Source of the DNA: an uncultured bacterium
Lineage (GTDB): Bacteria; Planctomycetota; JAJSAM01; JAJVHW01
NCBI GenBank assembly: GCA_937996235.1
Contig: CALKVK010000012.1
Location: 145,139-209,138 of the forward strand
Direction: 5' to 3'
DNA: 64,000 nt
Each line of letters starts with the position of its first letter. Position 1 is the first letter of the stretch. This document shows, one piece after another, positions 2,487-62,418 of this stretch. Both the position numbers and the translations under genes were made by a program. The notes under the pieces are model-generated. The model was not told the DNA's origin. It was given only the letters and a program-made list of their open reading frames with translations, and did not search any database.

Positions 2487-3059
2487 GTGGACGACTGGGA
2501 GGCGCTGATCGCCGGGGTCCGGGCGGGCGAGGCCGACGCGCTCGACGCGTTCTTCCGCCGCTTCGGACCGGCGCTCGAGAGGCTCGCGGCGCGCGCGATC
2601 GAGCCGGGCATGCGCCGCCGCTTCGGACCCGAGTCCATCGCGCAGTCGGTCTGCCGCACCTTCCTGCAGCGCGCACGCGACCGGGCGTACGACCTGCCCG
2701 ACGGGGACGCCCTCTGGCGCCTGCTCTGCGCCATCGCGCTGACCAAGGTGCGCGAGCGCGCCCGCCACCACCTGCGCCAGCGCCGCGCCATGCAGCGCGA
2801 GATCCACGGCGACGCCGCCGACGACGCGCTCGCCCGCGTCTCCTCGAGCGCTCCGGGTCCGGAGGACGACGCCGCCTTCCGCGAGCAGTTCCAGACGGCG
2901 CTCGACACGCTCGACGACGAGGAGCGCAGCATCCTCGAGCTGCGTCTCGCCGCGCGCACGCAGGCCGAGATCGCCGAGGCGCTGCACATCAGCGAGCGCA
3001 CGGTGCGGCGCATCCTCGGGCGCGTCGAGGAGCGGCTGACGCAGCTCCTCGCGACCTGA
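2487..3059 (+). CDS. ECF (sigma-70 family) RNA polymerase sigma factor.
   Basis: Only the C-terminal ~190 aa of track ORF 33..3059 is protein-like. It shows region 2 (DAFFRRFGPALERLAARA, LQRAR) and region 4 (DDEERSILELRLAARTQAEIAEALHISERTVRRIL) signatures. GTG at 2487 is the proposed start; TTG at 2457 is the alternative. The upstream part of that ORF is antisense to the kinase gene. Confidence 0.8.
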   Translation: MDDWEALIAGVRAGEADALDAFFRRFGPALERLAARAIEPGMRRRFGPESIAQSVCRTFLQRARDRAYDLPDGDALWRLLCAIALTKVRERARHHLRQRRAMQREIHGDAADDALARVSSSAPGPEDDAAFREQFQTALDTLDDEERSILELRLAARTQAEIAEALHISERTVRRILGRVEERLTQLLAT

Positions 3060-3178
3060 TCTCGGGTCGCATTCCGGTCGCGTTCCGGCCGACGCGCGGC
3101 GACGACGTGTCCGGTCCGTGCGCCCGACGGCAATCCCCCGTCGGAGGGTCGCCCCAGGGGCGCCCCCCGGGAGACCCC

Positions 3179-7785: not shown

Positions 7786-9207
7786 ATGTCCGTACGCCGC
7801 ATCGCCTGCATCGCCGCACTGCTCGCCGTGTGCGTCGCGCCCGCGTTCCTCGCGACGCCCGCGCGCGCGAAGGGCACGGCCGAGGACGAGCTGCGTGGGA
7901 AGCGCCGCAAGGCGCTGCTCGAGGCCGGACAGCGTCATCTCGAGATCGGCGTGTGGGCCCGCGACCAGGGCCTCGTGCCGCAGGCGACGGCCGAGTTCAT
8001 CCGTGCCGTCGAGGTCTCGGACGGACAGCACCCCGGCGCGAACAAGGTGCTGTCGATCATGCAGCGCTACGACGAGGCGTTCTGGAAGAAGCGGCGCAAG
8101 AAGCCGCACCAGGGCCTGCTCGACTCGTACGAGAAGCGCGCCGCGAAGGCGGCGGCCGCCGAGCTGGACGACCGCCTCGACATCGCGCGCTGGGCGTCGA
8201 AGAAGTCGGACCTCGCGGACGCCGCCTACGCGGAGTACGTCGACATCCTGCGCGATCTCGACCGTCCGCTCGAGCTGGACGACAAGGGCACCGTCGTCAT
8301 CGGCGGCGGGCCGATCCCCGACGCGCTGTCGGCGCGCGTCGTCGAGCACTCCGTGACGATCAACGGCAAGCGGTACGTGCGCGACGCGTTCCTCGAGAAG
8401 CTGCCCGAGGTCGGCGAGATCCACGAGGCGGTGCACGAGCGCGTGCGCGTGCGGACGATGAAGGACGACGCGCAGGCGGCGGACGTCCTCGCGCTGGCGC
8501 TCGCGCTCCTGCCGCAGCTCGAGGAGGAGACGGGCGGACGACCGACGCGGCGCATGAACGTGTTCGTCTTCACCGACAAGAAGACGTACGACGCGTACTT
8601 CGACGCCGCGGGCCTCTCCGAGCACAAGGTCGCGGCGGGGCTCGCCGTCTCCGGCATGAACATCGCGCTCGTGAACGGCGGCGGGCGGAGCGACGAGGAC
8701 GTGCGCGGCATCGCGCTGCACGAGCTGTCGCACCTGTTCGACATGGGCGTCACGCGCGGCGTGATGCCGAGCTGGTACCGCGAGGGCTTCGCGGAGACGT
8801 TCGGCGGCACCGGCACCTTCGCCTGGGACGGGACGACGCTGACGCTCGGCGGCAAGATGGCGTCGTTCCGGCTCGGCGCCGTGAAGGACGGCGCGCAGCG
8901 CATCCCGCTGCGTGAGCTGTTCACGTCGTCCGCGCACGCGCTGCTCACCACCGACCGCAACCGGGCCGCGGTCTTCTACGCCGAGTCGTGGGCGCTCATG
9001 CGCTACTTCCGCGAGGGCGCGACCGACGACGTGCGCGAGGCCTTCGACACGTGGCAGGCGTTCTGCCGCGGCGCCGCGATCGGCGCGAAGATCGGCGACC
9101 GCGACGCGAGCGACGGCACGGCGACGATCGCGGAGTTCGAGCGCCTGGTCGGCCCCCACCTCGACCGCATCGAGACCGAGTTCGCGACGTTCGTCGAGTC
9201 GCTCTGA
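7786..9207 (+). CDS. Secreted protein with HExxH motif; putative zinc-dependent peptidase (DUF1570/peptidase-MA-like).
   Basis: Signal peptide MSVRRIACIAALLAVCVAPAFLATPARA starts at 7786. HELSHLFD motif is present. The upstream part of track ORF 7312..9207 is antisense to the 7185-7643 gene. Confidence 0.75.
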   Translation: MSVRRIACIAALLAVCVAPAFLATPARAKGTAEDELRGKRRKALLEAGQRHLEIGVWARDQGLVPQATAEFIRAVEVSDGQHPGANKVLSIMQRYDEAFWKKRRKKPHQGLLDSYEKRAAKAAAAELDDRLDIARWASKKSDLADAAYAEYVDILRDLDRPLELDDKGTVVIGGGPIPDALSARVVEHSVTINGKRYVRDAFLEKLPEVGEIHEAVHERVRVRTMKDDAQAADVLALALALLPQLEEETGGRPTRRMNVFVFTDKKTYDAYFDAAGLSEHKVAAGLAVSGMNIALVNGGGRSDEDVRGIALHELSHLFDMGVTRGVMPSWYREGFAETFGGTGTFAWDGTTLTLGGKMASFRLGAVKDGAQRIPLRELFTSSAHALLTTDRNRAAVFYAESWALMRYFREGATDDVREAFDTWQAFCRGAAIGAKIGDRDASDGTATIAEFERLVGPHLDRIETEFATFVESL

Positions 9208-9272
9208 CGCGGCGCGCGCAGCGCCGTCGGGGATCGCGGGACGGCGCGCGAGAGCCGCGTCAGACTGCTGCC

Positions 9273-9803
9273 ATGCCGCCCCTCCTCGCGCGCCCGGTCG
9301 CAGGCGACTTCGACTCGTACCACGCCGGCTACGTGGAGCAGGTGCCGCCCGGCGATCTGCTGCAGCTCCTGCAGGGCCAGACGGCGGCGCACCGTGCCGC
9401 GTGCGTGCGCTTCGCAGCCTCGCCCGGACACCGCTACGCCGCAGGGAAGTGGACGGCGCGCGAGGTCCTCCTGCACGTGAACGACACGGAGCGGGTGTTC
9501 GGGTACCGGCTGCTGCGCTTCGTGCGCCGCGACCCGACGCCGCTCCCGGGCTTCGACCAGGACCTCTTCATGGCCGGCGCCGCGCGCGACGCGCGCACGC
9601 TCGACGCGCTCGCCGACGAGTTCGGACACCTGCGCGCCGCGAACGTCTCGCTGCTCGCCGCGTGCGACGCCGAGACGCTCGCGTGGCACGGCCGCATGTG
9701 GGAGCGCGAGATCTCGGTGCTGGCCCTCGCGTGCCTCTGCTTCGGCCACGCGGCGCACCATCTGCGCGTGCTCGACGAGCGCTACGCGACCGGCACCGCC
9801 TGA
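9273..9803 (+). CDS. DinB-family (DinB_2-like) four-helix-bundle protein.
   Basis: The internal Met at 9273 begins a protein-like region (YHAGYVEQVPPGDLLQLL...WTAREVLLHVNDTERVF...FGHAAHHLRVL). The histidine-rich motifs are typical of DinB/YfiT-like proteins. Confidence 0.7.
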   Translation: MPPLLARPVAGDFDSYHAGYVEQVPPGDLLQLLQGQTAAHRAACVRFAASPGHRYAAGKWTAREVLLHVNDTERVFGYRLLRFVRRDPTPLPGFDQDLFMAGAARDARTLDALADEFGHLRAANVSLLAACDAETLAWHGRMWEREISVLALACLCFGHAAHHLRVLDERYATGTA

Positions 9804-10056
9804 CGACGCAGCGAGCGCGGTCGGAGCGCCGTGGACGCGACGACCTGGGCGTCGCACGGACGCATCCCCGACGGCACGGCGGCGACGGCGTTGCACTCGA
9901 TCTCGGATCGCTTCGAGGGCTCCGTCGCGACATGGCGGCGCGCCGGCGCGGAACGGTCGCCGCGCAGCGGCGTCGCGGACTGCGCGCGCCGCGGACTCCG
10001 ACCGGCCCGGCCGACAGCGTACACTCCCCCACGGCGCCGGCGCGCCGCACGTCGCC

Positions 10057-10380
10057 ATGCCGCATCCCGGCCTTCCCGTCTGCTCCGCCTGCGGAGCCGT
10101 GCTCCGCCTCACGGCGACACGGCACGCGCTCGGGTTCCCGCGCCTCGCGTGCGGTGGCTGCGGGACGAGCGTGCTCGGCCCGCTGCCCACGGCGTTCCGC
10201 GTGACGTACATCGTGCTCGCGGTGCTCGTGGCTGTCGATGCCGTGCGCCTGCTGGTCACCGACGCGTTCGGTCCGTTCGACATCGCGCGTCTCGTGCTCT
10301 TCGACGGCGTCTTCGTCGGCGTGCTCGTCGCCGATGCGCGCCTGCGACGCGCGTCGCCGCCCGGCGACGCGCACGACTGA
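10057..10380 (+). CDS. Small hypothetical protein with an N-terminal CxxC...CxxC zinc-ribbon and a C-terminal hydrophobic segment.
   Basis: The ORF has two CxxC pairs and a TM-like stretch (VTYIVLAVLVAVDAVRLLV). Supported only by ORF plausibility. Confidence 0.35.
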   Translation: MPHPGLPVCSACGAVLRLTATRHALGFPRLACGGCGTSVLGPLPTAFRVTYIVLAVLVAVDAVRLLVTDAFGPFDIARLVLFDGVFVGVLVADARLRRASPPGDAHD

Positions 10381-10392
10381 GCGCCGCCCGGC

Positions 10393-11235
10393 TCAGGCGT
10401 CCGACGGCGCGGCGGCGGGCAGATCGACGCGGAAGACGGTGCCGAGCGGCGAGGTCCGCACGGCGATCGTGCCGCCGAGATCGAGCACGGCCTGCCGCAC
10501 GATGAAGAGTCCGAGACCGTTGCCGCCGCCGCGCGTGTGCACGCCGGAGAACGGCCGGAAGAGCCGCGCGCGCATCGTCTCGGGAATGCCCGGTCCGTTG
10601 TCCGCGACGGTGAGGCGGCAGATGCCGGCGCGCGGGCACGAGGCGCTGAGCGTCACCTCCGCGCCGGGCCGCTCGCCGCACGCCTTCACGGCGTTGGTCG
10701 CGAGGTTCACGACGGCCTGCACCGCGAGGCGGCACTCGCCGCGCACGCCGCCGTCCTCGGCCACGTCCGCGCGGAACGCGACGCTGTGCGCGTGCGCGAG
10801 CGGCCGGACGATCCGCGCGCCGTGGGCGAGCACCTCGGAGAGCAGGAAGCGCTGGTCGTCGAGCGCCGACTGCCGTCGCGCGAACGCGAGGAAGGCGTCG
10901 GTCGTCTCGGCGACGTCGCGGCACAGGTCGCGGATGCCGTCGAGCGCGCTGCGCATCTCCTCGGCGTCGCCGGAGTGCAGCGCGAGCTCCGCCGTCGAGA
11001 GGATGAGCTGCGCCTGGTTGCGGACGTCGTGCGCGAGACTCGACGTGATCAGCCCCGCCTGCGCGACGCGCTGCTGGTGCCCGAGCATCTGCAGCAGCGT
11101 CTCCCGTTCCGCCTCCCACTTCGCACGCTCGGCGTCGAGCGTCGGCGCACGGTCGACGGGCGGCGCCGACGCGGCGGGAGCCCGCCGGGAGGGGTTCCCG
11201 GCGGGACTGCGCGCGCGCGGAGCGTTGCTGTGCAT
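10393..11235 (-). CDS. Cytoplasmic sensor histidine kinase (HisKA + HATPase_c) with no adjacent response regulator.
   Basis: H-box SLAHDVRNQ, N-box NLATNAVKA, G1 DNGPGIP, G2 GLGL. The start lies 15 bp after the stop of the upstream small gene. Confidence 0.85.
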   Translation of the reverse strand: MHSNAPRARSPAGNPSRRAPAASAPPVDRAPTLDAERAKWEAERETLLQMLGHQQRVAQAGLITSSLAHDVRNQAQLILSTAELALHSGDAEEMRSALDGIRDLCRDVAETTDAFLAFARRQSALDDQRFLLSEVLAHGARIVRPLAHAHSVAFRADVAEDGGVRGECRLAVQAVVNLATNAVKACGERPGAEVTLSASCPRAGICRLTVADNGPGIPETMRARLFRPFSGVHTRGGGNGLGLFIVRQAVLDLGGTIAVRTSPLGTVFRVDLPAAAPSDA

Positions 11236-11250
11236 CGTGCGCCGAGACCC

Positions 11251-11628
11251 TCAGGTGACGTCGGAAGCGCTGTCGCAGCCAGGCAGATCGAGGTCGAGCG
11301 AAAGCCCGCCGGCCGTCGCCACGCGGAGCACGCGCGCCGCGCGCGGCTCGGCCGTGGACAGCGTGAACTGCCCGCAGTCGTCGGTCGTGACGGCCGGTCC
11401 CGCATCGAGCGCGACCGTCGCGCCGACCACGGGCCTCTCGTCGGCCGTTCGGATCACCTGACCGTAGTGGTAGCCCCAGGAATCGCCCCCGGTGTGGACC
11501 ACCAGGTCGACCGTCAGGCCGCCGCCGCAGAACACGAGCGACCTCCCGTCGGGGAGCGCCGCGCGCGCGCCGACGACCGCCCACGAGCGGGCCGAGTCGT
11601 AGACGAGACGCGCGGCGACGGCGCTCAT
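11251..11628 (-). CDS. Small hypothetical protein (125 aa); C-terminal domain paralogous to the adjacent gene.
   Basis: Only the C-terminal 125 aa of track ORF 11251..12132 are protein-like. ATG at 11628 overlaps the upstream stop (ATGA). Shares a DDCGQFTL / FGEFTF beta-rich C-terminal motif with the 11625..12164 product. Confidence 0.6.
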   Translation of the reverse strand: MSAVAARLVYDSARSWAVVGARAALPDGRSLVFCGGGLTVDLVVHTGGDSWGYHYGQVIRTADERPVVGATVALDAGPAVTTDDCGQFTLSTAEPRAARVLRVATAGGLSLDLDLPGCDSASDVT

Positions 11629-12164
11629 GCGTCCCAGCCTTCCCAGACCATCACGCACGGAGCGTCGAAGGCGGCGCCGAGGCGGAGTGCGTACACGCCG
11701 TCGCGGGCCGAGGCGAACGTGAACTCGCCGAACTCGTCGGTCGTCGTGTCGTCGGACGCCGGGACGGGAAGCCCCACCAGCCGGAGCGGCAGACTCGCGA
11801 CGGGCTCGTGGATGCGCCCGGCGTGCGTGACCTGACCGACGTAGCGCAGCTCGCGCTGCACCTCGCAGTCGCGCACGAGCACGTCGAGCGTGAACGGGCC
11901 GGCCGCGCACACGAGCTGGTAGTCGGCGGCCGCTCCGACGCGGGTTCCCGCACGGGCGCCCACGCGGGTCGGCCGCAGCCAGCGGCTCATGAGCGGACTG
12001 CGGCGCACGCGCGCCGTGTCGCCCGAGAGCAGGTCGAACGTGGTCGCGCTGCACGCGCTGCAGCGCTCCACCTCGAGGTGCTGCCGCACGCGGCGCACGA
12101 GCTCGCGCTCCGGCGCCGAGCCGAGCGCGCACTCCGACAGCTCCTCGCGGGTCGGGTGGGCCAT
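11625..12164 (-). CDS. Hypothetical protein (179 aa) with an N-terminal putative zinc-finger (H-x5-C-x2-C, anti-sigma zf-HC2-like) and a C-terminal beta-rich domain paralogous to the downstream gene.
   Basis: Protein-like region MAHPTREELSECALGS...HLEVERCSACS...TTDEFGEFTF. ATG at 12164. Its stop overlaps the downstream start (ATGA). Confidence 0.6.
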   Translation of the reverse strand: MAHPTREELSECALGSAPERELVRRVRQHLEVERCSACSATTFDLLSGDTARVRRSPLMSRWLRPTRVGARAGTRVGAAADYQLVCAAGPFTLDVLVRDCEVQRELRYVGQVTHAGRIHEPVASLPLRLVGLPVPASDDTTTDEFGEFTFASARDGVYALRLGAAFDAPCVMVWEGWDA

Positions 12165-12172
12165 CGCGATGT

Positions 12173-13264
12173 TCACCTGCCCACCGCCTGGCCCACGTCG
12201 AGCCGTCCCGAGTAGCGCAGACGACGGCCCTTCGCGTCGTAGACGGGGTACGCGGTGTCGGCGAGCCGCGCGACGACCTCGTTCACGCAGAGCTCCGGCT
12301 CGACCTGACGCAGGAGCGCGGCAGCTCCGGCGACGAACGGGGCGGCGAACGAGGTGCCGCTCCAGTACGCGTTGGCGTCGTCGGTGGGCGTGCCGACCGG
12401 CCCGTAGAGGTTGACGCCGGGCGCGAAGATCATGCGCGCCTGGCCCTCGAGCGGCCGCATGTCCTGGTACGAGGAGAACGGCGCGATCGCGTCGTTCTCG
12501 TCCACCGCGCCGACGACCAGAGCGGGCACGCCGAGCGCGAGATCGGTCACCGGGCCCCTGCCGTCGTTGCCGGCCGAGAGCACGACGACGATGCCGCTCG
12601 ACGTCGCCTCGCGCATGAGGTCCATGAGCTGCGTGTCCTTCGCCTTCGACGCCTCGAGCGACATGTTGATCACGTCCACGCGGCGGTCGATCGCGTAGCG
12701 CAGCCCGGCCGCGAGCGACGCGTTGAACCCGCGGCCCTCGTCGTCGCGCACGCGGATCGGCAGGATCTGCGCCTCGGGCGCGACCTTCAGGATCATGCCC
12801 GCGACGAACGTGCCGTGGCCGAGGCCCTCGTCCACGACTCCGTCGCCGTCGTCGTCGAGACCGTTGCCGTGGTCGTTGACGTCGCTGTCGCGGTCCACCG
12901 CGTCGAGACCCCCGGGTGCGATGTGTGCGCACACCGCGGGGTGATCGACGTTGAAGCCGCCGTCGAGCACGGCGACGAGCGCCCCGCTCCCGACCGACAG
13001 CGACCACGCGGCCGGCGCGCGCACCTGCTGCTCGGGCGCGTACGCCATCGCCATCGCAAGATCCGACGAGACGAGCTTGACGTTCGTCGGGTTGCACTCG
13101 CCGGAGAGCAGCTCGTAGCGTCGCGACTCCGACCTCGTCCGGCCGTCGCAGTCGCGCGACTGCTCCGACCTGTCCGCCGCCGCGGGGACCGCGGCGAGCG
13201 TGACGGCCAGCGCCGCGATCGCGGCGGCGCGCCCCATGCGGCGCGGCTGGTGGGTGTCCTTCAT
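12173..13264 (-). CDS. Secreted subtilisin-like serine protease (peptidase S8).
   Basis: Signal peptide MKDTHQPRRMGRAAAIAALAVTLAAVPAAA. Catalytic D (VAVLDGG), H (GHGTFVAGM) and S (GTSFAAPFVAGAAALL). Start at 13264 overlaps the CHAT gene stop (ATGA). Confidence 0.85.
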   Translation of the reverse strand: MKDTHQPRRMGRAAAIAALAVTLAAVPAAADRSEQSRDCDGRTRSESRRYELLSGECNPTNVKLVSSDLAMAMAYAPEQQVRAPAAWSLSVGSGALVAVLDGGFNVDHPAVCAHIAPGGLDAVDRDSDVNDHGNGLDDDGDGVVDEGLGHGTFVAGMILKVAPEAQILPIRVRDDEGRGFNASLAAGLRYAIDRRVDVINMSLEASKAKDTQLMDLMREATSSGIVVVLSAGNDGRGPVTDLALGVPALVVGAVDENDAIAPFSSYQDMRPLEGQARMIFAPGVNLYGPVGTPTDDANAYWSGTSFAAPFVAGAAALLRQVEPELCVNEVVARLADTAYPVYDAKGRRLRYSGRLDVGQAVGR

Positions 13265-16209
13265 CGTGCGTGCTCCTTCCGACCGCGCCGCCCGGTCGCG
13301 GCGCCGGCCCTGTCGTGACGACAGCCCTGCCGGCGCGCGGCCCCGCGCGATCCCTGTGATTCGGTCCCGGGGCGTCCCGTCAGGAAGAAGGGCGCCCAGT
13401 AGTACGGATGGGGATGCCGCTCGCGGACCGCGACCATCGTGGCGCGATGCGCTGCGGCGGCGTCGCCGAGTCGTTCGAACTCGGCGTAGAAACGGGTCAT
13501 GAACGACGTCGTGACGGCGTCGTCGACACGCCACTGGCTGGCGAGGATCGCGGGCGCGCCGGCGTAGAGGAAGCCGCGCGTGAGTCCCAGGATCTCGTCC
13601 CCGCCGGCGACGTCGGCGATGCCGCTCTCGCACGTCGAGAGCACGATCAGCTCGCTGCGCACGTCGAGCTCGTAGAGGTCGTAGAGGTTCGCCCAGCGGT
13701 CGGCGAGCCGCACCGACGAGAGCATCGGCTGCGCGTGGCGGAACATGCCGTGCGTCGCGAGGTGCACGATGCGCGCGCGGCCGACCTCCTGCGCGAGGCG
13801 ATGGAACGTGGCCGCCGGACCGACGTGCACGCGGTCCGTGCCGAGCCGTGCGCCGAGCGCGACGGCCTCGTCGGCGATCGCGGGCGCGACCTCGTCGGGC
13901 AGCGCCAGGATGGCGGGCGCACCGGTGGCGCGGGCGCGCGGCGCGCCGCAGTGGCGGTACACCGCGGCGCTCGGCGCGTACGTGATCTCGAAGCGGTCGC
14001 AGAGCCAGCCGTCACCCCACGGCAGGGCGTGGAACGGCACATGGTGCAGCGCACCGTGCGGGACGATCACGAGCCGCTCGCTCGTGAGGTGCGGCGCGAT
14101 GTCGCCGAGGGCCAGCGCGGCCAGCTTCCCGAGCGTGGCGCGCGTCGCGCGCAGCACGAGCTCGGGCGCCGGCATCTCCGGCCGCTCGTGCTTCGCGAGG
14201 TGGAAGTGGAACTGCTCGAGCAGGTCGAGCACCTCGCGCGCCCGCACGGCGCGCCGCGTCACGTGCAGCGCGTCGCGCGTGATCGCGAACGTGAAGAGGC
14301 TCGTGCCCGTGAGGAAGAACTCGACCAGGCACGTGCGCCCGTCGAGTTCGGCACGCGTCTCGGCGAGCGTCGGCGCCGCCGCGGACTCGAGCGCGTACGT
14401 GCCGCCGCCCGACATGCGGCGCTGCCGCAGCACGTCGGCGAGCTCCACCTCGAGCGAGCGCGCCTCGCGCAGCGCGCGCTGCGTCGCACGCGAGCTGCGC
14501 GCGGCGCCGCCTTCGCCCTGGCGCATGATGCGCCCGTAGATCGCGGTCAGCCGCTCGCGCAGGTGCTGCGCGCGCGCCGCGAGTGTGCCCTCTCCCTGCC
14601 CTGCGCCGCCGCTCTCGCGGCCCTGCAGCAGGTCCGTGAGCGCACGCGACTTCGCGCGCTCCACGAACTCGAACGCGTCGTGCTCGCGCCCTGCGTCCGC
14701 GAGCAGCTCGACGATCTCCTCGTACAGCGCGCGGCGCCCCGCGAGGAACGCCATCATGTACTCGTCGACGGGCACGCCGCCGCGGTAGCGCTCGAGCTCG
14801 TCGATCGCCCGGCGGTACGCGTCGATGGCCGACGAGACGTCGCCCAGCTCGCGCAGCGCCCGACCGAGCAGCCGCTCCGCCTCGATTCGCACGCACGGCG
14901 CGTGGACGCGCCGGCAGTGGGCGAGCACCTCCTCCGCACGCCCGCGCGCCGCGGACGCGCGCCCCTCGTCGAGCTCCAACCAACCCCGGAGCAGAGCGAC
15001 CGACGCGAGCGAGAGCGGGTTCTGCCGGCCCCGCGGGTGCGCGCGCTCCGCGCGGGCCGCCATGCGCCGCGCGCCGGCGCGGTCGCCGGCGGCGCGGAGC
15101 AGCTCCGCACGCCCTGCGAGACACTGATAGGCACGCTCGCCGTGGCCGGCCTTCGCGAAGCGGCGCGCGGCACGTTCCCAGAGCGCGTGCGCCTTCTTCG
15201 CGTCGCCGTCCTGCGCCGCGGCGCGCGCCGCGATCTGGCACGCCTGCGTCGCCTCCTTCGCGAGGCCGAGGGCGCGGAAGCGTCGCTCGGCACGCGACGC
15301 CGCGAGCGCGGCCTCGGCGGGCATGTTGAGCTGGACGTGGATCTCGGCGCGGTCGAGGTCCACGTGCGCGAGATGGCGCTCGTCGCCAAGTGCCTCGAGC
15401 GCGTGCTCGACGTCCGCGTAGCGCCGCAACGCCGAGGCGAAGCGTCCGCGGAGGCCCTCGGCGTACGCGGCGTTGTAGTCGATCTGCGCGACCGTGTGCG
15501 TGCAGCCCTCGCGTGCGAAGAGGTCCCGCGCGATCACGAACTGCCGCTCGGCGCCGCGGAAGCGGTTGCACGCCTCGAGCGCGTTCGCGCGGTTGGCGGC
15601 GATGGCGCCGCGCACGCGCGGCAGCGGCGAGCCGTTCAGCAGGCGGTCGGCGTCGGCGAGGTGGCGCAGCGCGGCGCGCGGGTCGTCCTCGCGGTACGCG
15701 ATGTCGCCGAGCACGAGCGACGTCCAGAGCAGGCCCTTGCGGTCGCCGCGCTCCGCGTGGCTGCGGCGCGCGCGCTCGACGGCGTCCCGCGCCGGGCCGT
15801 AGCGCTCGAGATGCAGGAGCGCCTGCGCCCGCAGCGTCTCGAGTTCGGCCGCGTGCGCGTGCTCGTCGGCATGCAGGTGCACGGCGCCGCGGCGAACGGC
15901 GCGGAGCGCGGCGCGGTGGTCGCCGCCGCTCGACTCGGCCTGCGCCCACGCGCTGCAGGCGCGCAGCATGGCCTCTCGGTCGCCTGCGGACTCGGCGACG
16001 CGGAGCGCGAGGCGTGCCGCTTCGGAGGCGTCGCGCGGGTCCACGCGCATCCGCGTGTGGGCGGCGGCGAGGAAGGCTTCGGCGAGCGCGGATCCGGCGG
16101 GCGTCGCCCGCCGCGCCAGACGGCGCGAGCGCGCGGCCAGACCACGCGCGGCGAGCACGTGATCGCAGAACTCCGCGGGCGCGGCGGCCCTGTCGGATTC
16201 GTTCGGCAA
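13261..16209 (-). CDS. TPR-repeat + CHAT domain protein (caspase-like protease; 982 aa).
   Basis: N-terminal tetratricopeptide-like helical repeats. C-terminal CHAT signature (RIVHLATHG ... LIVLSTCESG His/Cys dyad). Confidence 0.85.
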   Translation of the reverse strand: MPNESDRAAAPAEFCDHVLAARGLAARSRRLARRATPAGSALAEAFLAAAHTRMRVDPRDASEAARLALRVAESAGDREAMLRACSAWAQAESSGGDHRAALRAVRRGAVHLHADEHAHAAELETLRAQALLHLERYGPARDAVERARRSHAERGDRKGLLWTSLVLGDIAYREDDPRAALRHLADADRLLNGSPLPRVRGAIAANRANALEACNRFRGAERQFVIARDLFAREGCTHTVAQIDYNAAYAEGLRGRFASALRRYADVEHALEALGDERHLAHVDLDRAEIHVQLNMPAEAALAASRAERRFRALGLAKEATQACQIAARAAAQDGDAKKAHALWERAARRFAKAGHGERAYQCLAGRAELLRAAGDRAGARRMAARAERAHPRGRQNPLSLASVALLRGWLELDEGRASAARGRAEEVLAHCRRVHAPCVRIEAERLLGRALRELGDVSSAIDAYRRAIDELERYRGGVPVDEYMMAFLAGRRALYEEIVELLADAGREHDAFEFVERAKSRALTDLLQGRESGGAGQGEGTLAARAQHLRERLTAIYGRIMRQGEGGAARSSRATQRALREARSLEVELADVLRQRRMSGGGTYALESAAAPTLAETRAELDGRTCLVEFFLTGTSLFTFAITRDALHVTRRAVRAREVLDLLEQFHFHLAKHERPEMPAPELVLRATRATLGKLAALALGDIAPHLTSERLVIVPHGALHHVPFHALPWGDGWLCDRFEITYAPSAAVYRHCGAPRARATGAPAILALPDEVAPAIADEAVALGARLGTDRVHVGPAATFHRLAQEVGRARIVHLATHGMFRHAQPMLSSVRLADRWANLYDLYELDVRSELIVLSTCESGIADVAGGDEILGLTRGFLYAGAPAILASQWRVDDAVTTSFMTRFYAEFERLGDAAAAHRATMVAVRERHPHPYYWAPFFLTGRPGTESQGSRGAARRQGCRHDRAGAATGRRGRKEHAR

Positions 16210-16376
16210 CGGACCTCCCCCGTCCCGGCTCCGCGGTCGGCCTCCTCTGCCGTCCCCGCGTCACCGACCCACGTGGGATCGAGATGCAGCGTCGTTGCAT
16301 CGGGAAGCGGCGGATGCGGACTTGAGGGAAATCCGGGTTTTAGCGCCGCGGCGGCGACGCGAGCAGCGGCGCACCG

Positions 16377-17883: not shown

Positions 17884-18087
17884 TCACTTCTCCACGGCGA
17901 AGAAGACGACGCGCGTGCCGTCGCCCTGCGGCGCGTCGTGCACGTGGCTCCTGAACAGGCGCGCGCGCTGGCACAGGTACTCGGCCCGCCACGCGCGACG
18001 CCGCCAGTCGCTCTCCTTCACGACCTCCTCGCGCACTTCCCACGCGTTGCCGAGCCACGTCTGCAACTGCTGCCTGTCGAGCGCCAT
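17884..18087 (-). CDS. Small hypothetical protein (67 aa).
   Basis: Non-biased composition (W, K, E, F, Y). Directly downstream of the lipoprotein triplet on the same strand. Confidence 0.35.
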   Translation of the reverse strand: MALDRQQLQTWLGNAWEVREEVVKESDWRRRAWRAEYLCQRARLFRSHVHDAPQGDGTRVVFFAVEK

Positions 18088-18114
18088 CGGCGTCTCCTCC
18101 CCGCGCTCCGCGCG

Positions 18115-18723
18115 TCAACGCACCGCGATGCCCGCCTGGATGAGTTCGCTGCGCAGACGCGCGAGCGCGGCGCTGTCGCCCCGCTGCGCGGCGGCCTGGA
18201 TCGCCGCCTGCGCGTCGGCGAACGAGCGCACGGGCGCGCCCTGCCACGCCGCGACGACCTCGAGCGCGCGGGCCCTCTGCGCGTCGTCTCCCGGCGTCCC
18301 GCGCACGGCGCGCAGCAGCGACTCCGCCTGCGTCAGCGGCTCCGCCGCGACCAGCGTGCCGGCGAGCGCGTCGACCGAGGCCTTCATCGTCTCCTCGGCG
18401 CCGGGCACCTGCGCCGCGGCGCCCGTTGCGAAGACCTGCGTCACGCGCACGTTGCCGAGACTCGCGAGCAGGAATCCGGACGACTGGATCGACGACCCCG
18501 CGAGCACGGAGTACGCCTCGGCGTACTCGCCGCTCACAGGATCTCGGCGCATCGGCATGAGCACGCCCTCGGTGCGGTCGTAACCGACCCTCACCGTCTG
18601 CATGCCGCCCTCGACGGCGTTCAGCTCGACGCCCGTCAGGTTGGACGTGGTGAAGATCACGGCGTGCCGGCAGCCGGGTGCGACGCACAGGGCGGCCGCC
18701 AGGAGCCACGTCGCGGTGCGCAT
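18115..18723 (-). CDS. Lipoprotein, paralog 1 of a tandem triplet (202 aa).
   Basis: MRTATWLLAAALCVAPGC lipobox. Conserved IFTTSNLTGVEL / QVFATG motifs shared with the next gene. Confidence 0.65.
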   Translation of the reverse strand: MRTATWLLAAALCVAPGCRHAVIFTTSNLTGVELNAVEGGMQTVRVGYDRTEGVLMPMRRDPVSGEYAEAYSVLAGSSIQSSGFLLASLGNVRVTQVFATGAAAQVPGAEETMKASVDALAGTLVAAEPLTQAESLLRAVRGTPGDDAQRARALEVVAAWQGAPVRSFADAQAAIQAAAQRGDSAALARLRSELIQAGIAVR

Positions 18724-19124
18724 CACTCCCCCGCCTTCTCGGCGGCCGCGCGCCGGTGCATCGAGTCGAGGAGCTGGACGAGTCCCGAGCTCGCGCCGCT
18801 CCGCGAGACGTTGTTCGCCGCCTCGCCCGTCGCGAAGACCTGGAACAGGTCGAGGCCGCCGAGCCAGCGGTTGTCCATGTCGATCGCCGCGAAGACGGAC
18901 GCCGCCTCGTCGGCCTGCGCGCCGCTCTGCGGGTCCTCGACGGGCACGATCGCACCCTCGAAGCGCTTGTAGCCGAGCACCGCGGACGTCGGGACGCCGT
19001 CGGTGGCGGACAGCTCCACGCCCACCTTCGTGGTGGTGGTGAAGATCAGGTGGTCGCTGCGGCAGCCCGCGAGCGCGAGCGCCGCCAGCGCCGTGGCGGT
19101 CCATGCCGCGGTCGGTCTCCTCAT
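18723..19124 (-). CDS. Lipoprotein, paralog 2 (133 aa).
   Basis: MRRPTAAWTATALAALALAGC lipobox. LIFTTTTKVGVEL / FQVFATGEAA motifs. One-nucleotide stop/start overlap with the downstream paralog. Confidence 0.6.
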   Translation of the reverse strand: MRRPTAAWTATALAALALAGCRSDHLIFTTTTKVGVELSATDGVPTSAVLGYKRFEGAIVPVEDPQSGAQADEAASVFAAIDMDNRWLGGLDLFQVFATGEAANNVSRSGASSGLVQLLDSMHRRAAAEKAGE

Positions 19125-19690
19125 GGCCGGTCTCCTCCCCTGCTGCGGACGAAGCGCGTGGCGCGCCAGTCCTGCGCGTCGAGCGTGATGGCGTAGAGCG
19201 CGTCGTCGTCCCGCGGGACGGCGACGTGCGTGACGGACGAGTAGCCGAGGTGCGCGCCCTGCGAGGTCGCGGCGAGCACGCAGCCGGCACCGAACGCGCG
19301 GTGCCGCACGAACGCGGGGCGATCGGGCGGCGCGGGCCACGCCACGATGCCGACCGCGTGCGTCGCGCCCGCGTCGTCGGTCCACGTGAAGCAGAGCGGC
19401 GGCGGGAGCTGCGGTCCGAGCGAAGCGGGCGCCTGGTCGGTCGCGACGTCGCGCTGCGGCGCGACGAGCAGATCGGACGCGCCGAGCTCGACGCCGCCCC
19501 ACGGACCCGTGGCGCGCACGTCCACGCCGACCACGACCCGCCGGAGCGCGCCCGTCTCGGGTGCCGACGCCGCGTAGCCGAGGAGCACGTCGCCGCCCGT
19601 GAAGGGGTTCGGCAGCGCGCAGCCGGCGGCAGAAGCTGCGACGGCGAGCGCCGCGCCTCCCCGCACCAGCGCGCGCAGGTACCCACTCAC
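19121..19690 (-). CDS. Lipoprotein, third member of the tandem cluster (190 aa).
   Basis: GTG start at 19690 gives VSGYLRALVRGGAALAVAASAAGC (signal peptide + lipobox). The longer track ORF starting at 19816 carries a junk N-terminus. Confidence 0.5.
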   Translation of the reverse strand: MSGYLRALVRGGAALAVAASAAGCALPNPFTGGDVLLGYAASAPETGALRRVVVGVDVRATGPWGGVELGASDLLVAPQRDVATDQAPASLGPQLPPPLCFTWTDDAGATHAVGIVAWPAPPDRPAFVRHRAFGAGCVLAATSQGAHLGYSSVTHVAVPRDDDALYAITLDAQDWRATRFVRSRGGDRP

Positions 19691-19817
19691 GGAGCCCTCC
19701 CGGCGCGCGGCACGCGCGCCTCCCACATCCGCAGGGAGTCTACGGAGCCGGGACGCGGCGAATCCACCGTCGATTCGCTCCGTGAATGACGCAGCCTCGT
19801 GCGCGGAGGTCGGCACG

Positions 19818-20198
19818 ATGCCCCAGCGCTATCGCAGGAAGTCCGGAGCCGACGTGATCGCGGTCCGGCTCGCACTCGACACCGAGGGCTTCTCGTATCG
19901 CAAGTGGGGCGGCGTGCAGCGCTGCGCGGCCGGCGACTGGATCGTGGACAACGGCAGCGACGTCTACACCGTGAAGGCCGACGTGTTCGCGGCGACGTAC
20001 GGGCACGTGCGCGACGGCCGCTACCGCAAGACGGCGCCCGTCTGGGCCGAGCGGATGGCCGAGGCGGGCAGCGTCGCGACGAACGAGGGCGTCTCGCACT
20101 ACGTCGCGGGCGACTACGTCGTCTCGCACCACGCGGACCTGCGCGAGCCGTGGGCCGTCGCGGCCGCTGCGTTCGACGAGCTGTACGAGCCGGACTGA
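19818..20198 (+). CDS. Hypothetical protein (126 aa).
   Basis: Internal ATG at 19818 (MPQRYRRKSGADVIAVRLALDTEGFSYRKWGG...). Non-biased composition. Divergent from the lipoprotein cluster. Confidence 0.5.
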   Translation: MPQRYRRKSGADVIAVRLALDTEGFSYRKWGGVQRCAAGDWIVDNGSDVYTVKADVFAATYGHVRDGRYRKTAPVWAERMAEAGSVATNEGVSHYVAGDYVVSHHADLREPWAVAAAAFDELYEPD

Positions 20199-20207
20199 CG
20201 GCCGTCG

Positions 20208-21386
20208 TCACCTCTTCTCGGTCTCGCGGTCCGGCGGCGCATTCGCCTCCACGGGCCGGAACGACATCGGGAAGGTCATCGCGAGGCGCAGGCCGAGGGT
20301 CGCGTCCTCGCCGATCGCCACGGGCCGCGGCACCGAGACGTCGATCGTCGTCGCGGGGTCCGCGACCCGCCCCCCGCCGAGTGCGTCGCCGCCCCGCAGA
20401 TCCACGCGCAGCTCGACGCCGACGCGCGGGGCTCCCTCCGCACCGTCGGCCCGCGCGACGCCGTTCGTGGGCCACGATCCGAACGCGCCGGGCCACGCGT
20501 CGCCGGCCCACCACGTGCCGCCGCGCGCGAGGCCCTCGAGCTGCGAGCGCTGCCACGCGCCGCCGGGGACCGGCCGCGCCGTGACGTACTGCCACTCCGC
20601 GATCGAGGGCACGCGCAGCTCGTGTCGTCCGAGCACCGCGGAGAGCTCCTCCCACGTGAGGGCGAACGACCCGTCGTCCGCGACGACGCGCGCAGGAGGA
20701 GCGGCGCCGTCGAGGAGCGGCTCGAGGAGGTGGTTCCACTGCGCGAGCGTCGTGGGGCTCCTGGCGACGAGGAACGACTGCAGCCGGACGTGACGCTCGA
20801 CGACGCGCGCGCCGTTGTTCTGGGCGGTGCGCGTCGCAGGCAGCTCGAAGCTCTGGTCGGCCTCGCCGCCGGGCACGAGCACCATCACGAGCGCGGGATC
20901 GTCGCCGTCCGGCACGCGCCCCGTCGCCGGGTCGCGCAGCCGGATCGTGCCGGAGCCGACGACCGCGAACTCGAGGAGCCCCGTCTCGGGATCCGGGCCG
21001 AGCGGCACGATCGACGGCGACGCCTCGATGTGGAACCAGTCCGGCGGGCCGGACTCGGCTGCGTCCCCGTCCGTCCCCCGCCAGAGCACGACGCTGAACA
21101 GGTCGGCGTAGCGCGCGTCGCGCGGCAGCTCGTTGCGCAGCGCGTCCCAGAGCGCCTCCTGCTCGCGGCGCGACAGCGTCTGCCGCAGGACGACGGGCGT
21201 GGTGTCGGGCGGCGGCTCCAGACCGGCGAAGCCCTGCGTGTCGGGACCGGCGACGGCGTCGGGCAGCTCCTCCCCGACGAGCGCGCGACCGAACGCGGCA
21301 GCCGAGCCCGCGGCGCGTCCGCGCGACTCCGCCCCGCACGCGGCGACGACGAGTGCCAGCGCGAGCGGAAGAGCGCGCCGCGTCAC
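20208..21386 (-). CDS. Lipoprotein with formylglycine-generating-enzyme (FGE-sulfatase/SUMF1-like) domain. Last gene of the central operon.
   Basis: GTG at 21386 gives VTRRALPLALALVVAACG (lipobox). FGE-like motifs SFLVARSPTTLAQWNHLL and RVPSIAEWQYVTA (compare LPTEAEWEYAAR). The start overlaps the upstream stop (GTGA). Confidence 0.75.
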   Translation of the reverse strand: MTRRALPLALALVVAACGAESRGRAAGSAAAFGRALVGEELPDAVAGPDTQGFAGLEPPPDTTPVVLRQTLSRREQEALWDALRNELPRDARYADLFSVVLWRGTDGDAAESGPPDWFHIEASPSIVPLGPDPETGLLEFAVVGSGTIRLRDPATGRVPDGDDPALVMVLVPGGEADQSFELPATRTAQNNGARVVERHVRLQSFLVARSPTTLAQWNHLLEPLLDGAAPPARVVADDGSFALTWEELSAVLGRHELRVPSIAEWQYVTARPVPGGAWQRSQLEGLARGGTWWAGDAWPGAFGSWPTNGVARADGAEGAPRVGVELRVDLRGGDALGGGRVADPATTIDVSVPRPVAIGEDATLGLRLAMTFPMSFRPVEANAPPDRETEKR

Positions 21387-21973
21387 GCGCTCTCCCGCGG
21401 CGCGCGCAGGCGCGAGGACACCGCGCGCACCCAGGTGTCGGCGGCGAGTGCGTCGCCGAGGCCCTCCGCGACGGCGACGAACTCGTAGAGGCGATGGCGC
21501 CGGCGGCGGAACGACGCCGCGACCGTCAGAGCGCAGCACGCCAGGAGACCGTGACCGACTCCGAGCAGCACGACGTCGACGGCGAAGGATGGCGAGACCA
21601 CCGTGGACGCCCCCGAGCCGAGGAGTGCGAACGCCGTCCGCAGCACCGCCCAGAAGAGCAGCAACTCCACGAGGATGCGCGCACGCGACGCCGCCTCGTG
21701 CCGCCGCGACTCCGCCAGCGTCACGAGCGTCGGGTGGACGCACGCGACCGCGCCGACGACGAGCCACGCGAACGTGCGCGGTCCCGGAGTCGCCGCGTCG
21801 AGCGACGCGCCGCACGCGGCCGCGGCGAGTGCGACGCACGCGGTCGTCGCGAGGGGGACGGCCCAACCGCGCGACGTCCCCGGACCGGGCGACGGCTCGC
21901 GCGGGGCGAGCAGTTCCTCCCAGAGCGCGAGGGGCGCGCTGACCGGCGTCGACGGGCGCGAGGTATCGCTCAC
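21383..21973 (-). CDS. Small multipass membrane protein (~196 aa).
   Basis: Only the C-terminal ~196 aa of track ORF 21383..26242 are protein-like, with TM helices (WAVPLATTACVALAAAACG, AWLVVGAVACV, LVELLLFWAVLRTAFALLG, VVLLGVGHGLLACCALTVAA). GTG at 21973 overlaps the upstream stop (GTGA). Confidence 0.6.
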   Translation of the reverse strand: MSDTSRPSTPVSAPLALWEELLAPREPSPGPGTSRGWAVPLATTACVALAAAACGASLDAATPGPRTFAWLVVGAVACVHPTLVTLAESRRHEAASRARILVELLLFWAVLRTAFALLGSGASTVVSPSFAVDVVLLGVGHGLLACCALTVAASFRRRRHRLYEFVAVAEGLGDALAADTWVRAVSSRLRAPRESA

Positions 21974-27956: not shown

Positions 27957-27969
27957 GGGCAGTCCTCCG

Positions 27970-29220: not shown

Positions 29221-29263
29221 GGGGGGCGAACCTCCTGCGCGCGCCGAGGGCGGCGCGCTCCCT

Positions 29264-30166: not shown

Positions 30167-30197
30167 GGGGTCCTCCGGGATGGCGTGGCGGCGCGCG

Positions 30198-62260: not shown

Positions 62261-62418
62261 CGCAAGACGCGGCAAGCCATCGGACCATGGCGCAACCTCC
62301 GAGGGGCGAGCCCGAACTCGTGTGGGGGCACCGAGCGCCAACCTTCCTCGCCGCTGAAGTTCTGCACGACTCCACTCGAAGCCAGGCGCAGTGTAGACAA
62401 CGCGCTCGGACTTCTGAG

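Follow-up and report, generated by a model that had tools for sequence, protein, structure and literature searches.

Operon layout and gene products

On the minus strand of the window, the whole 64-kb stretch of DNA analysed here, a caspase-like and a subtilisin-like protease are encoded next to two small proteins and a histidine kinase, which raises the question of whether these genes form one signalling system and what its proteases act on. The original prediction saw in them a protease-driven cascade. The block at 10393-16209 comprises five genes in one tightly coupled operon, and all five frames are backed by GC3 phase and a codon log-likelihood gene call. The gene of the TPR-CHAT protease (13261..16209; 982 aa, TTG start; here and below, all features of the operon lie on the minus strand) is followed by those of an S8 subtilisin-like serine protease (12173..13264; 363 aa, ATG start), small protein A (11625..12176; 183 aa, GTG start, identical to the NCBI call P0001), small protein B (11251..11628; 125 aa, ATG start) and the histidine kinase (10393..11235; 280 aa). 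The ATGA overlaps described earlier between the CHAT stop and the S8 start (13264/13261) and between the A stop and the B start (11628/11625), as well as the 15-bp gap between B and the kinase, were exact on re-reading. The start of A had to be revised: the ATG at 12164 proposed earlier lies four codons inside the GTG-started frame, and given the GTG start, the S8 stop and the A start share a GTGA overlap of 4 nt (12176/12173). Related loci contain homologs of all five genes and none of the flanking genes. The block is a real single operon centred on the TPR-CHAT protease, and all domains called earlier were upheld by Pfam matches for CHAT, S8 and the kinase ATPase domain.

The element CCCACGTGGGTCGG (16264..16277, minus strand), which holds the 10-bp palindrome CCCACGTGGG, is located about 55 nt 5′ of the CHAT start and is identical upstream of the ortholog in locus L001. 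The window contains one exact match and one match with a single mismatch, the latter inside gene A, with 0.05 expected. This element may serve as an operator or be associated with the promoter.

The TPR-CHAT protein consists of ~690 aa of TPR-like repeats (Pfam TPR_12) followed by the CHAT domain at residues 696-945 (13375..14124), which matches PF12770 (clan CD, caspase-like peptidases) over profile positions 7-288 of 289 (E 1e-52, 179.8 bits vs. a gathering cut-off of 24). The catalytic dyad is present on alignment, with His820 in the motif ATHG (13750-13752) and Cys860 in LSTCESG (13630-13632); His820, Gly821, Cys860, Glu861, Ser862 and Gly863 are invariant in a four-sequence alignment. The orthologs are 65% identical in L001 and 47-51% in L004/L005. 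No signal peptide or membrane helix was found in this protein, whose 19-residue hydropathy reaches a maximum of 1.44, and the protease is predicted to be cytoplasmic. The protein scored 35 bits against the Csx29 model NF041237 of NCBIfam, below the cut-off of 300, and the search of its profile against the PDB revealed no specific similarity to DdvA. Another CHAT gene is located at 30198-35447, in agreement with the earlier remark that the window holds two CHAT loci within 64 kb.

The S8 protein matches Pfam Peptidase_S8 (E 3e-40, 138.9 bits vs. a cut-off of 21.8), its catalytic triad and oxyanion Asn are intact (Asp101, His150, Ser305 and Asn233), and among solved structures it comes closest to thermitase (E 1e-28). 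Assignment to the mycosins of type VII secretion (TIGR03921) was rejected at 133.5 bits against a curated cut-off of 278.75. Residues 1-30 (13175-13264), with the N-terminus MKDTHQPRRMGRAAAIAALAVTLAAVPAAAD, form a Sec-type signal peptide, and the S8 homologs also carry an N-terminal signal peptide or, in L004, a lipobox. CHAT, A, B and the kinase lack both signal peptides and membrane helices, and S8 is therefore predicted to act in a different compartment from the other products. Because S8 carries this signal peptide, it is improbable that CHAT and S8 form a direct cascade.

The kinase strongly matches HATPase_c (E 7e-23, 81.6 bits vs. a cut-off of 26.4) and weakly HisKA (E 0.08, 13.4 bits vs. 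26.9), and its H-box LAHDVRN (His69) is clear within the dimerisation/phosphoacceptor helix pair. The ATPase domain contains the N-box (Asn181), G1 (residues 212-216), the F box and G2 (from residue 238), and the H, N, G1, F and G2 motifs are conserved among the orthologs. Partial matches to many NCBIfam sensor kinases all remained below their cut-offs. The N-terminus of ~50 aa is variable and of low complexity, and the protein has no sensor domain and no membrane helix. We found no response regulator or receiver domain among the genes scanned in 1-54000, which bears out the description of a sensor-less kinase lacking such a partner over that range, and reading the ORF translations of the 5 kb that follow the L069 ortholog revealed none either. 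Kinase orthologs are located 3′ of B in L001, L002, L008 and L069; among the loci compared, the kinase is present only in these four and the window.

Small proteins A and B

The original prediction had proposed that the two small proteins share a C-terminal beta-rich domain and that one of them resembles zf-HC2 anti-sigma factors. A contains an N-terminal zinc-finger-like three-helix domain (11997-12176) with His7, His33, Cys39 and Cys42; a beta-sandwich (11628-11957) makes up its C-terminal part. AlphaFold models A with low overall confidence (pLDDT 56), and the helices, at residues 10-18, 24-36 and 40-51, reach pLDDT 70-86. B is a paralog of the C-terminal part of A: it retains the LxFDS family motif and the beta-sandwich and lacks the zinc-finger domain. 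A and B align by BLASTP at E 0.001 and 31% identity, and a profile based on 30 distantly related A-like proteins, from which both were excluded, recovered A at E 4.5e-14 and B at E 4.8e-10; the C-terminal domain of A on its own matched the distant-relative profile at E 2.4e-12. These results establish the two proteins as paralogs sharing the beta-sandwich domain. Hits to CarboxypepD_reg (Pfam PF13620) were sub-threshold (E 0.019 for A and 3e-4 for B), neither protein exceeding the gathering score. Both small ORFs have homologs in syntenic loci, and the orthologs of A are 62-68% identical. The A/B family comprises at least 652 clusters, is covered by no Pfam model and is unnamed, every member seen being annotated as hypothetical.

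The motif H-x5-C-x2-C of A corresponds to His33, Cys39 and Cys42 and is conserved among its relatives; together with His7, these positions are invariant family-wide. Between His and Cys, 20 members have the spacing x3, 193 have x4 and 12 have x5; A of the window has x5 and the canonical ZAS motif x3. When the N-terminal profile of the family was compared with the PDB, the best match was RslA (E 1.1e-4), followed by the N-terminal domain of DdvA (3.7e-3; full-length DdvA, 0.07); RsiW (0.026) and ChrR (0.3) were weaker, and the remaining rows consisted of two designed helical repeats and a SWIM zinc finger (E 0.02-1.9). The significant solved matches are thus zinc-binding anti-sigma factors only (RslA and DdvA). 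Pfam zf-HC2 (PF13490) did not match A and its close homologs even at E <= 10, nor the distant A-like proteins at E <= 0.1. The zf-HC2-like reading of the motif therefore stands in part: likeness to anti-sigma factors is supported by RslA, by DdvA and by distant members adjacent to sigma genes, and membership of the Pfam family is not. On sequence grounds, the N-terminal domain of A is a divergent relative of zf-HC2 that falls outside the Pfam family. A of the window clade lacks ~30 linker residues conserved in the sigma-linked relatives, and with its linker so shortened it may have lost sigma binding.

Conservation of the operon and the place of the sigma factor

The five-gene block is conserved in Planctomycetota metagenome genomes, and its core is far more widespread. 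In the relatives from soil metagenomes, ECF sigma is followed by TPR-CHAT, a ~220-aa A/B homolog, secreted S8 and HD-GYP; independent gene calls with precomputed Pfam annotation gave Sigma70_r2/r4, TPR-CHAT, an unannotated protein, Peptidase_S8 and HD_5. We compared 80 dereplicated loci around CHAT orthologs and relatives, and counted S8 and A-like genes in the 37 loci with at least 3 kb of downstream sequence. The pairing of CHAT with S8 is conserved, a same-strand S8 gene being present in 33 of these 37, and an A-like gene adjoins CHAT in 26/37. The sigma gene is directly upstream of CHAT in 16/25 distant loci and in none of the six close loci, and no sigma gene lies in or beside the operon of the window. 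HD-GYP was found in 16 of 22 distant loci. Distant A-like genes directly adjoin an ECF sigma gene, and L013, L015 and L043 have the order sigma, A-like, CHAT. L089 keeps just three genes of the module, those of the sigma, CHAT and the A-like protein. S8 is missing from L089 and L013/L015, which retain the sigma, CHAT and A-like genes.

The only ECF sigma gene of the window is located at 2487-3059 and had been named as a possible partner of the small proteins. This assignment was rejected: the protein shows ~25% identity to the module sigma and scores 15.7 bits against the profile of the module sigmas, and an ECF sigma of this type is missing from the flanks of the related loci.

Possible mechanisms and comparison with known systems

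We consider there to be an even chance that the locus derives, by loss of the sigma and coupling to a kinase, from a widespread operon of TPR-CHAT and a soluble anti-sigma-like protein, in which CHAT gates the A-like protein. The ancestral order was likely ECF sigma, TPR-CHAT, A-like protein, secreted S8 and HD-GYP, and the ancestral A-like protein would have held the co-encoded ECF sigma by its His/His/Cys/Cys three-helix domain. A signal sensed via the TPR array would activate the CHAT protease, which would dislodge the A-like protein or cut it, probably within the stretch that joins its zinc domain to its beta-sandwich; the freed sigma would transcribe the operon, whose outputs would include the exported subtilase and the c-di-GMP phosphodiesterase. 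In the Planctomycetota clade of the window, the sigma gene would have left the operon, the A-like gene would have been duplicated into A (zinc domain, shortened linker and beta-sandwich) and B (beta-sandwich only), and the sensor-less histidine kinase would have taken the place of HD-GYP. From these changes we infer that A and B are most likely substrates or adaptors of the protease, that A would be cleaved by CHAT, and that A and B would bind and gate either a sigma encoded elsewhere or the co-encoded kinase. S8 would be an exported output outside any cascade, an assignment that accounts poorly for its near-constant linkage to CHAT.

That linkage, in 33/37 informative loci and with translational coupling in the window, speaks for a two-protease cascade in which CHAT and the subtilase would act on one another, or successively on the small proteins, and the kinase would serve as the read-out; CHAT-initiated proteolytic cascades are known from type III CRISPR systems (bioRxiv 10.1101/2023.06.23.546230). 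We consider such a cascade quite improbable, as essentially all S8 family members bear a Sec signal peptide or lipobox that the other products lack, S8 is absent from L089 and L013/L015 even though sigma, CHAT and the A-like gene are kept, and L005 has four S8 paralogs and neither A nor B. The same observations, the predicted export of S8 alone and its loss from some loci, count against reading the original prediction of a protease-driven cascade as two proteases that act on each other. The cytoplasmic beta-sandwich proteins A and B might instead form an immunity or chaperone set, keeping the subtilase inactive or helping it to fold until it is exported, with CHAT and the kinase as unrelated regulators; we regard this as very improbable.

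A role in conflict or abortive infection, in which TPR-CHAT would sense an invader and halt growth by proteolysis or via the kinase, as in other CHAT-based defence systems such as Craspase, appears unlikely as well. Conflict-type genes are numerous in the window (DUF4062-iSTAND, AAA, a giant WD40 protein, the second CHAT with TPR-S, and STK-AAA_16-TPR), TPR-CHAT has the architecture of the Craspase protease with a weak match to Csx29, and DdvA controls a defence island (PMC11506125). However, PADLOC yielded no specific hit, its matches being limited to BovA (E 1e-4) and a generic subtilase, and the locus contains no toxin-like effector. The distant relatives are located in stable housekeeping contexts (peptide ABC transporters, arginase and LytB), and their partners are signalling genes (sigma and HD-GYP).

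For the preferred reading of CHAT gating an A-like protein, the closest parallels come from systems that link TPR-CHAT proteases or zinc-binding anti-sigma factors to ECF-type sigmas. DdvA of Myxococcus xanthus is an anti-sigma factor fused to TPR-CHAT, and its autoproteolysis was proposed to release an ECF sigma (PMC11506125). The DdvA-DdvS system resembles the module in that a three-helix domain, a zinc-bound anti-sigma domain in DdvA and an anti-sigma-like one in the A family, is tied to a TPR-CHAT with a His-Cys dyad. DdvA is a single transmembrane polypeptide with periplasmic TPR-CHAT, whereas the window encodes the protease and the anti-sigma-like protein as separate soluble products, with the membrane helix replaced by a beta-sandwich. 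Zinc is bound by Cys/His/Cys/Cys in DdvA and, as predicted from sequence, by His/His/Cys/Cys in the family. With two separate genes and no membrane helix in either product, A and CHAT were rejected as a DdvA-type anti-sigma factor. Craspase of type III-E CRISPR (Csx29 with Csx30, Csx31 and RpoE) likewise has a cytoplasmic TPR-CHAT and a small-protein substrate controlling an ECF-type sigma (PMC10028731), but A and B are unrelated to Csx30. No Cas7-11 or Cas-like gene was found among the annotated neighbours in the window, and with NF041237 below its cut-off, TPR-CHAT was rejected as a member of Csx29/Craspase. In the most likely mechanism, the cytoplasmic TPR-CHAT would cleave or release soluble A, an arrangement that would correspond to DdvA or to Craspase-Csx30-RpoE in split and soluble form.

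A resembles the class I ZAS proteins (RslA, RsrA, ChrR and RsiW) in its predicted N-terminal helical domain and in a putative ligand pattern, His...His/Cys-x-Cys-x2-Cys, at the helix II/III junction. It differs from them in its spacing (x3 canonical, x5 in A and x4 in most of the family), its solubility and C-terminal beta-sandwich, and the lack of an adjacent sigma in the window clade.

Conserved carboxypeptidase, subtilase and CHAT genes near ECF54 sigmas have led to the proposal that these sigmas are controlled by proteolysis (PMC8999054); this genomic context was described by Huang et al. 2015 and Casas-Pastor et al. 2021, both reviewed in PMC8999054, and ECF54 is described in the literature as having no anti-sigma factor. 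The window locus has the same trio of CHAT, subtilase and carboxypeptidase(-regulatory)-like protein, and the distant relatives of its module add directly upstream an ECF sigma, which may belong to ECF54. Unlike the ECF54 context, the window has no sigma, two carboxypeptidase-regulatory-like proteins and a terminal histidine kinase, and the carboxypeptidase-like protein of the module appears to bear a zinc-binding anti-sigma-like N-terminal domain. We tentatively raise the possibility, which we think doubtful, that A/B represent the missing anti-sigma of the CHAT/subtilase-associated (ECF54-like) sigmas, placed under a separate TPR-CHAT, and that the switch has been rewired here to an orphan kinase. 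If true, the locus would be a protease-controlled two-component input, for which there is no described precedent, and the arrangement of CHAT with A/B would be securin/separase-like or a split DdvA. The neighbourhood of proteases and an ECF sigma was noticed earlier in the ECF54 context, and the locus of the window appears to be a rewired, sigma-less variant of it.

Structure of the operon and its products

The G+C content of the window is ~75%, and long ORFs occur in all six frames. Genes were selected by third-position G+C phase and by a codon log-likelihood call trained on the long genes of the window. Both methods converge on five consecutive minus-strand genes, which encode a TPR-CHAT protein (13261-16209, 982 aa, TTG start), an S8 peptidase (12173-13264, 363 aa, ATG start), the small proteins A (11625-12176, 183 aa, GTG start) and B (11251-11628, 125 aa, ATG start), and a histidine kinase (10393-11235, 280 aa, ATG start). 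The GTG start of A is the same as in the NCBI annotation of an identical protein (P0001), and with this start A overlaps the S8 stop codon as GTGA. The predicted ATGA junctions at 13264/13261 and 11628/11625 and the 15-bp gap preceding the kinase gene were read correctly in the sequence. Given these three start/stop overlaps, all genes of the block except that of the kinase are translationally coupled. On one side the block meets a convergent plus-strand ORF that ends at 10380, on the other a divergent ORF with its start at 16377; no homolog of either ORF occurs in the related loci. A scan inside the operon for consensus sigma-70 promoters and terminators returned nothing, which has little meaning at 75% GC. 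Upstream, the element CCCACGTGGGTCGG at 16264-16277, located ~55 nt before the CHAT start, holds the perfect 10-bp palindrome CCCACGTGGG and is identical upstream of the ortholog in a Planctomycetota metagenome genome (L001). A one-mismatch copy of CCCACGTGGGTCGG lies inside gene A (11959-11972).

Pfam supports the CHAT, S8 and HATPase domain calls of the original prediction. The CHAT domain (E 1e-52) is preceded by TPRs, and its His/Cys dyad, which the original prediction had left to be confirmed by alignment, consists of His820 (ATHG) and Cys860 (LSTCESG), both invariant across orthologs. No sequence relative of TPR-CHAT was found by phmmer among solved structures, and a profile gave just a marginal match to Csx29. 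The S8 protein (Peptidase_S8, E 3e-40; Asp101, His150, Asn233 and Ser305 present) is thermitase-like and does not reach the cut-offs of mycosin or of other named subfamilies. It carries a typical Sec signal peptide at the N-terminus, while neither a signal peptide nor a membrane helix was recognized by hydropathy in TPR-CHAT, A, B and the kinase. Only ~60 residues separate the signal peptide from the catalytic Asp in the S8 of the window clade (12173-13264 in the window), which is devoid of the ~100-aa propeptide-like region of the S8 proteins at sigma-linked loci (compared with positions 11808-13154 of one such locus, L025); the latter also bear a repeated QSTAAVLD insertion. The kinase has a clear HATPase_c domain (E 7e-23), a weak HisKA match (E 0.08), an H-box (His69) and the N, G1, F and G2 boxes, and a variable, low-complexity stretch of ~50 residues forms its N-terminus. 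It was described as sensor-less and lacking a response regulator; indeed, a sensor domain is absent, no receiver was present among the genes scanned in 1-54000, and no response regulator was read in the ORFs downstream of the ortholog in L069, a close locus.

Related loci and the A/B protein family

A word-indexed search of 5.8 billion proteins retrieved only four close homologs of A and three of B, on syntenic contigs. All five genes are found in L069 and also in L001 (= L003), where the kinase gene is truncated by the contig end. Two other loci, L002 and L008, contain S8 and/or A followed by B and the kinase. Gene A of L002 (537-1033) apparently has a frameshift that separates the zinc-finger region from the beta domain; either a faulty assembly or a pseudogene could account for it. 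CHAT and S8 are kept in somewhat more distant Planctomycetota, together with A plus a copy of its C-terminal domain in L004 or with a B-like protein in L009/L010. The L004 copy, which follows gene A, is a near-duplicate of A's own C-terminal domain (4722-5755). In L005, also from more distant Planctomycetota, four tandem secreted S8 paralogs follow TPR-CHAT (8216-12085), and A/B-like genes are absent. The kinase was found exclusively at loci having both A and B. Given the conservation and synteny of both A and B in five or more independent loci, we ruled out that they are spurious ORFs, a doubt that the original prediction had raised.

We scanned metagenomes with a CHAT alignment as seed and obtained 80 loci whose full-length relatives are ~950 aa and share 29-50% identity. 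All-against-all clustering of their ORFs defined the conserved same-strand partners: S8 (58/80 loci), a ~220-aa protein directly after CHAT (49/80), an HD-GYP protein (Pfam HD_5) after S8, and an ECF sigma gene directly upstream of CHAT (21/80). When only dereplicated loci with enough flanking DNA were counted, S8 was on the same strand in 33 of the 37 loci with at least 3 kb downstream, a near-constant CHAT-S8 pairing, and an A-like gene was adjacent in 26 of 37. The sigma gene lay directly upstream in 16 of 25 distant loci and in none of the six close loci, and HD-GYP was present in 16 of 22 distant loci. Independent gene calls with precomputed Pfam annotation gave the order Sigma70_r2/r4, TPR-CHAT, unannotated protein, Peptidase_S8 and HD_5 in two loci (L091/L092), and an 822-kb contig (L089) harbors a minimal version with just sigma, CHAT and the unannotated protein. 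In three loci (L013, L015 and L043), sigma is followed by the small protein and then by CHAT, the classic sigma/anti-sigma adjacency. An apparent ECF-type bipartite promoter motif, TGGGAAGC...TGATGC, upstream of the sigma genes of distant loci was rejected, as it is actually coding sequence of an upstream ABC transporter.

A and B match CarboxypepD_reg of Pfam only below threshold. A profile from 30 of the distant ~220-aa proteins matches A with E 4.5e-14, covering the C-terminal domain and a colinear N-terminal motif, and B with E 4.8e-10. By these matches to a profile built only from distant members, A and B belong to the ~220-aa family, in agreement with their predicted paralogy and shared beta-rich C-terminal domain. 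Four N-terminal residues are invariant in the family alignment (His7, His33, Cys39 and Cys42 in A numbering), and the beta domain retains the signature AG-R, D, GQ and T-x3-GEF. The canonical anti-sigma spacing between His and Cys is x3; family members show x3 (n=20), x4 (n=193) or x5 (n=12, including the window clade). AlphaFold models A with three N-terminal helices (pLDDT 70-86) and a poorly resolved beta domain, and B with a confident all-beta fold (pLDDT 74). The likeness of A to zf-HC2 was borne out in part: the family gave no match to Pfam zf-HC2 even at permissive thresholds, and a full-length A profile returned only noise against the PDB, but the profile cut to the N-terminal domain alone was informative and recovered the anti-sigma likeness. 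Compared with sigma-linked relatives, A of the window clade lacks ~30 linker residues (EPP...R..K..F and the LxFDS region), and the start of B falls exactly at the LxFDS motif; the ancestral protein has been partitioned between the two paralogs. Across 1.84 billion representative proteins, a full HMMER scan collected 652 clusters of the A/B family at E <= 1e-30; almost all of them have lengths of 200-240 aa and match from end to end. Among 62 members in an annotated database, none is named and none has a Pfam domain.

Genes surrounding the operon

The second CHAT gene predicted in the window is present at 30198-35447 and encodes a 1749-aa DUF7379-CHAT-TPR-S protein. Beside it are genes for an alpha/beta hydrolase (29264-30166), a DUF4062-iSTAND protein (27970-29211), an AAA ATPase (26961-27956) and a 1672-aa WD40 protein (21970-26988), and this region (21970-35447) looks like a STAND-type conflict or signaling cluster unrelated to the operon. 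Two large Ser/Thr kinases are encoded, one at 1-2186, which runs off the window start and is fused to WD40 repeats, the other at 36642-40259, in fusion with AAA_16 and TPR. At 17884-21973, six or seven genes of small to medium size, distributed over the two strands, lack any Pfam match, and several of them are joined by 4-nt overlaps (17884-18087, 18115-18726, 18723-19124, 19121-19690, 19782-20198, 20208-21386 and 21383-21973). Two ordinary metabolic enzymes are encoded as well: an NAD-specific glutamate dehydrogenase of giant size (1611 aa; 40647-45482) and a nitric oxide reductase of the quinol type (51553-53880), whose NorB is fused to a cytochrome c-like domain. At 62001-64000 the G+C content drops from ~75% to 66.5% and codon scores are weak, which may reflect the border of a foreign or non-coding segment.

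For the ECF sigma at 2487-3059, raised as a possible partner of the small proteins, we found no support: it scores only 15.7 bits against the sigma profile of the module, is ~25% identical to that sigma, and the regions flanking related loci contain no counterpart of it. In the stretch 2487-6118, this PF07638-type sigma gene is followed by one for a 979-aa secreted PKD and CopC protein, not an anti-sigma factor.

A regulatory model and its precedents

The best-supported reading is that the A/B family may act as a soluble, anti-sigma-like adaptor under the control of the neighboring cytoplasmic TPR-CHAT protease; we give it roughly even chances, with homology, synteny and predicted compartment as its basis and the further steps proposed. 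As the window clade has no sigma gene at the locus, a duplicated A and a sensor-less kinase in place of HD-GYP, A and B would probably gate either a sigma factor encoded elsewhere or the co-encoded kinase. The original prediction instead envisaged a protease-driven signaling cascade. We regard a direct cascade of the two proteases, CHAT and subtilase, as improbable, since S8 is exported, so that the predicted compartments differ, and some family loci do without it; for the same reasons S8 is more plausibly an output than a cascade member.

The conflict-rich surroundings in the window would fit a defense system, but PADLOC gave no defense-system assignment and the wider family resides in housekeeping contexts with signaling partners, making this reading unlikely. 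That A and B act as protease inhibitors or chaperones is improbable: a generic fold match is its sole basis, and it leaves the zinc domain unexplained. Should the adaptor model be wrong, the operon is still conserved and well defined, and it contains members of a sizeable protein family that has no name.

Components of the adaptor model have precedents. Myxococcus xanthus DdvA, in which a zinc-binding three-helix anti-sigma domain is fused to TPR-CHAT, was proposed to autoproteolyse and free its ECF sigma; according to its authors, no other anti-sigma factor containing TPR-CHAT has been characterised (PMC11506125). Craspase (Csx29) cuts Csx30, a regulator of RpoE (PMC10028731). TPR-CHAT and the A-like protein would form a concrete candidate protease-substrate pair. 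The module appears portable between outputs, either sigma and HD-GYP or a histidine kinase; if so, nature would have carried out in the window version an experiment on how a caspase-like switch is rewired. Genes for CHAT, subtilase and carboxypeptidase-like proteins have been recorded alongside certain ECF sigma factors, and for one such group, ECF54, control by proteolysis has been proposed from this context (PMC8999054), which the loci found here resemble. Sequence comparison suggests the carboxypeptidase-like protein, with its divergent zinc-binding anti-sigma-like domain, as the candidate anti-sigma factor and missing regulator of this module. The window locus represents a new version, sigma-less and kinase-coupled, of the CHAT/subtilase/carboxypeptidase-like module, which had been noticed before but is uncharacterised.
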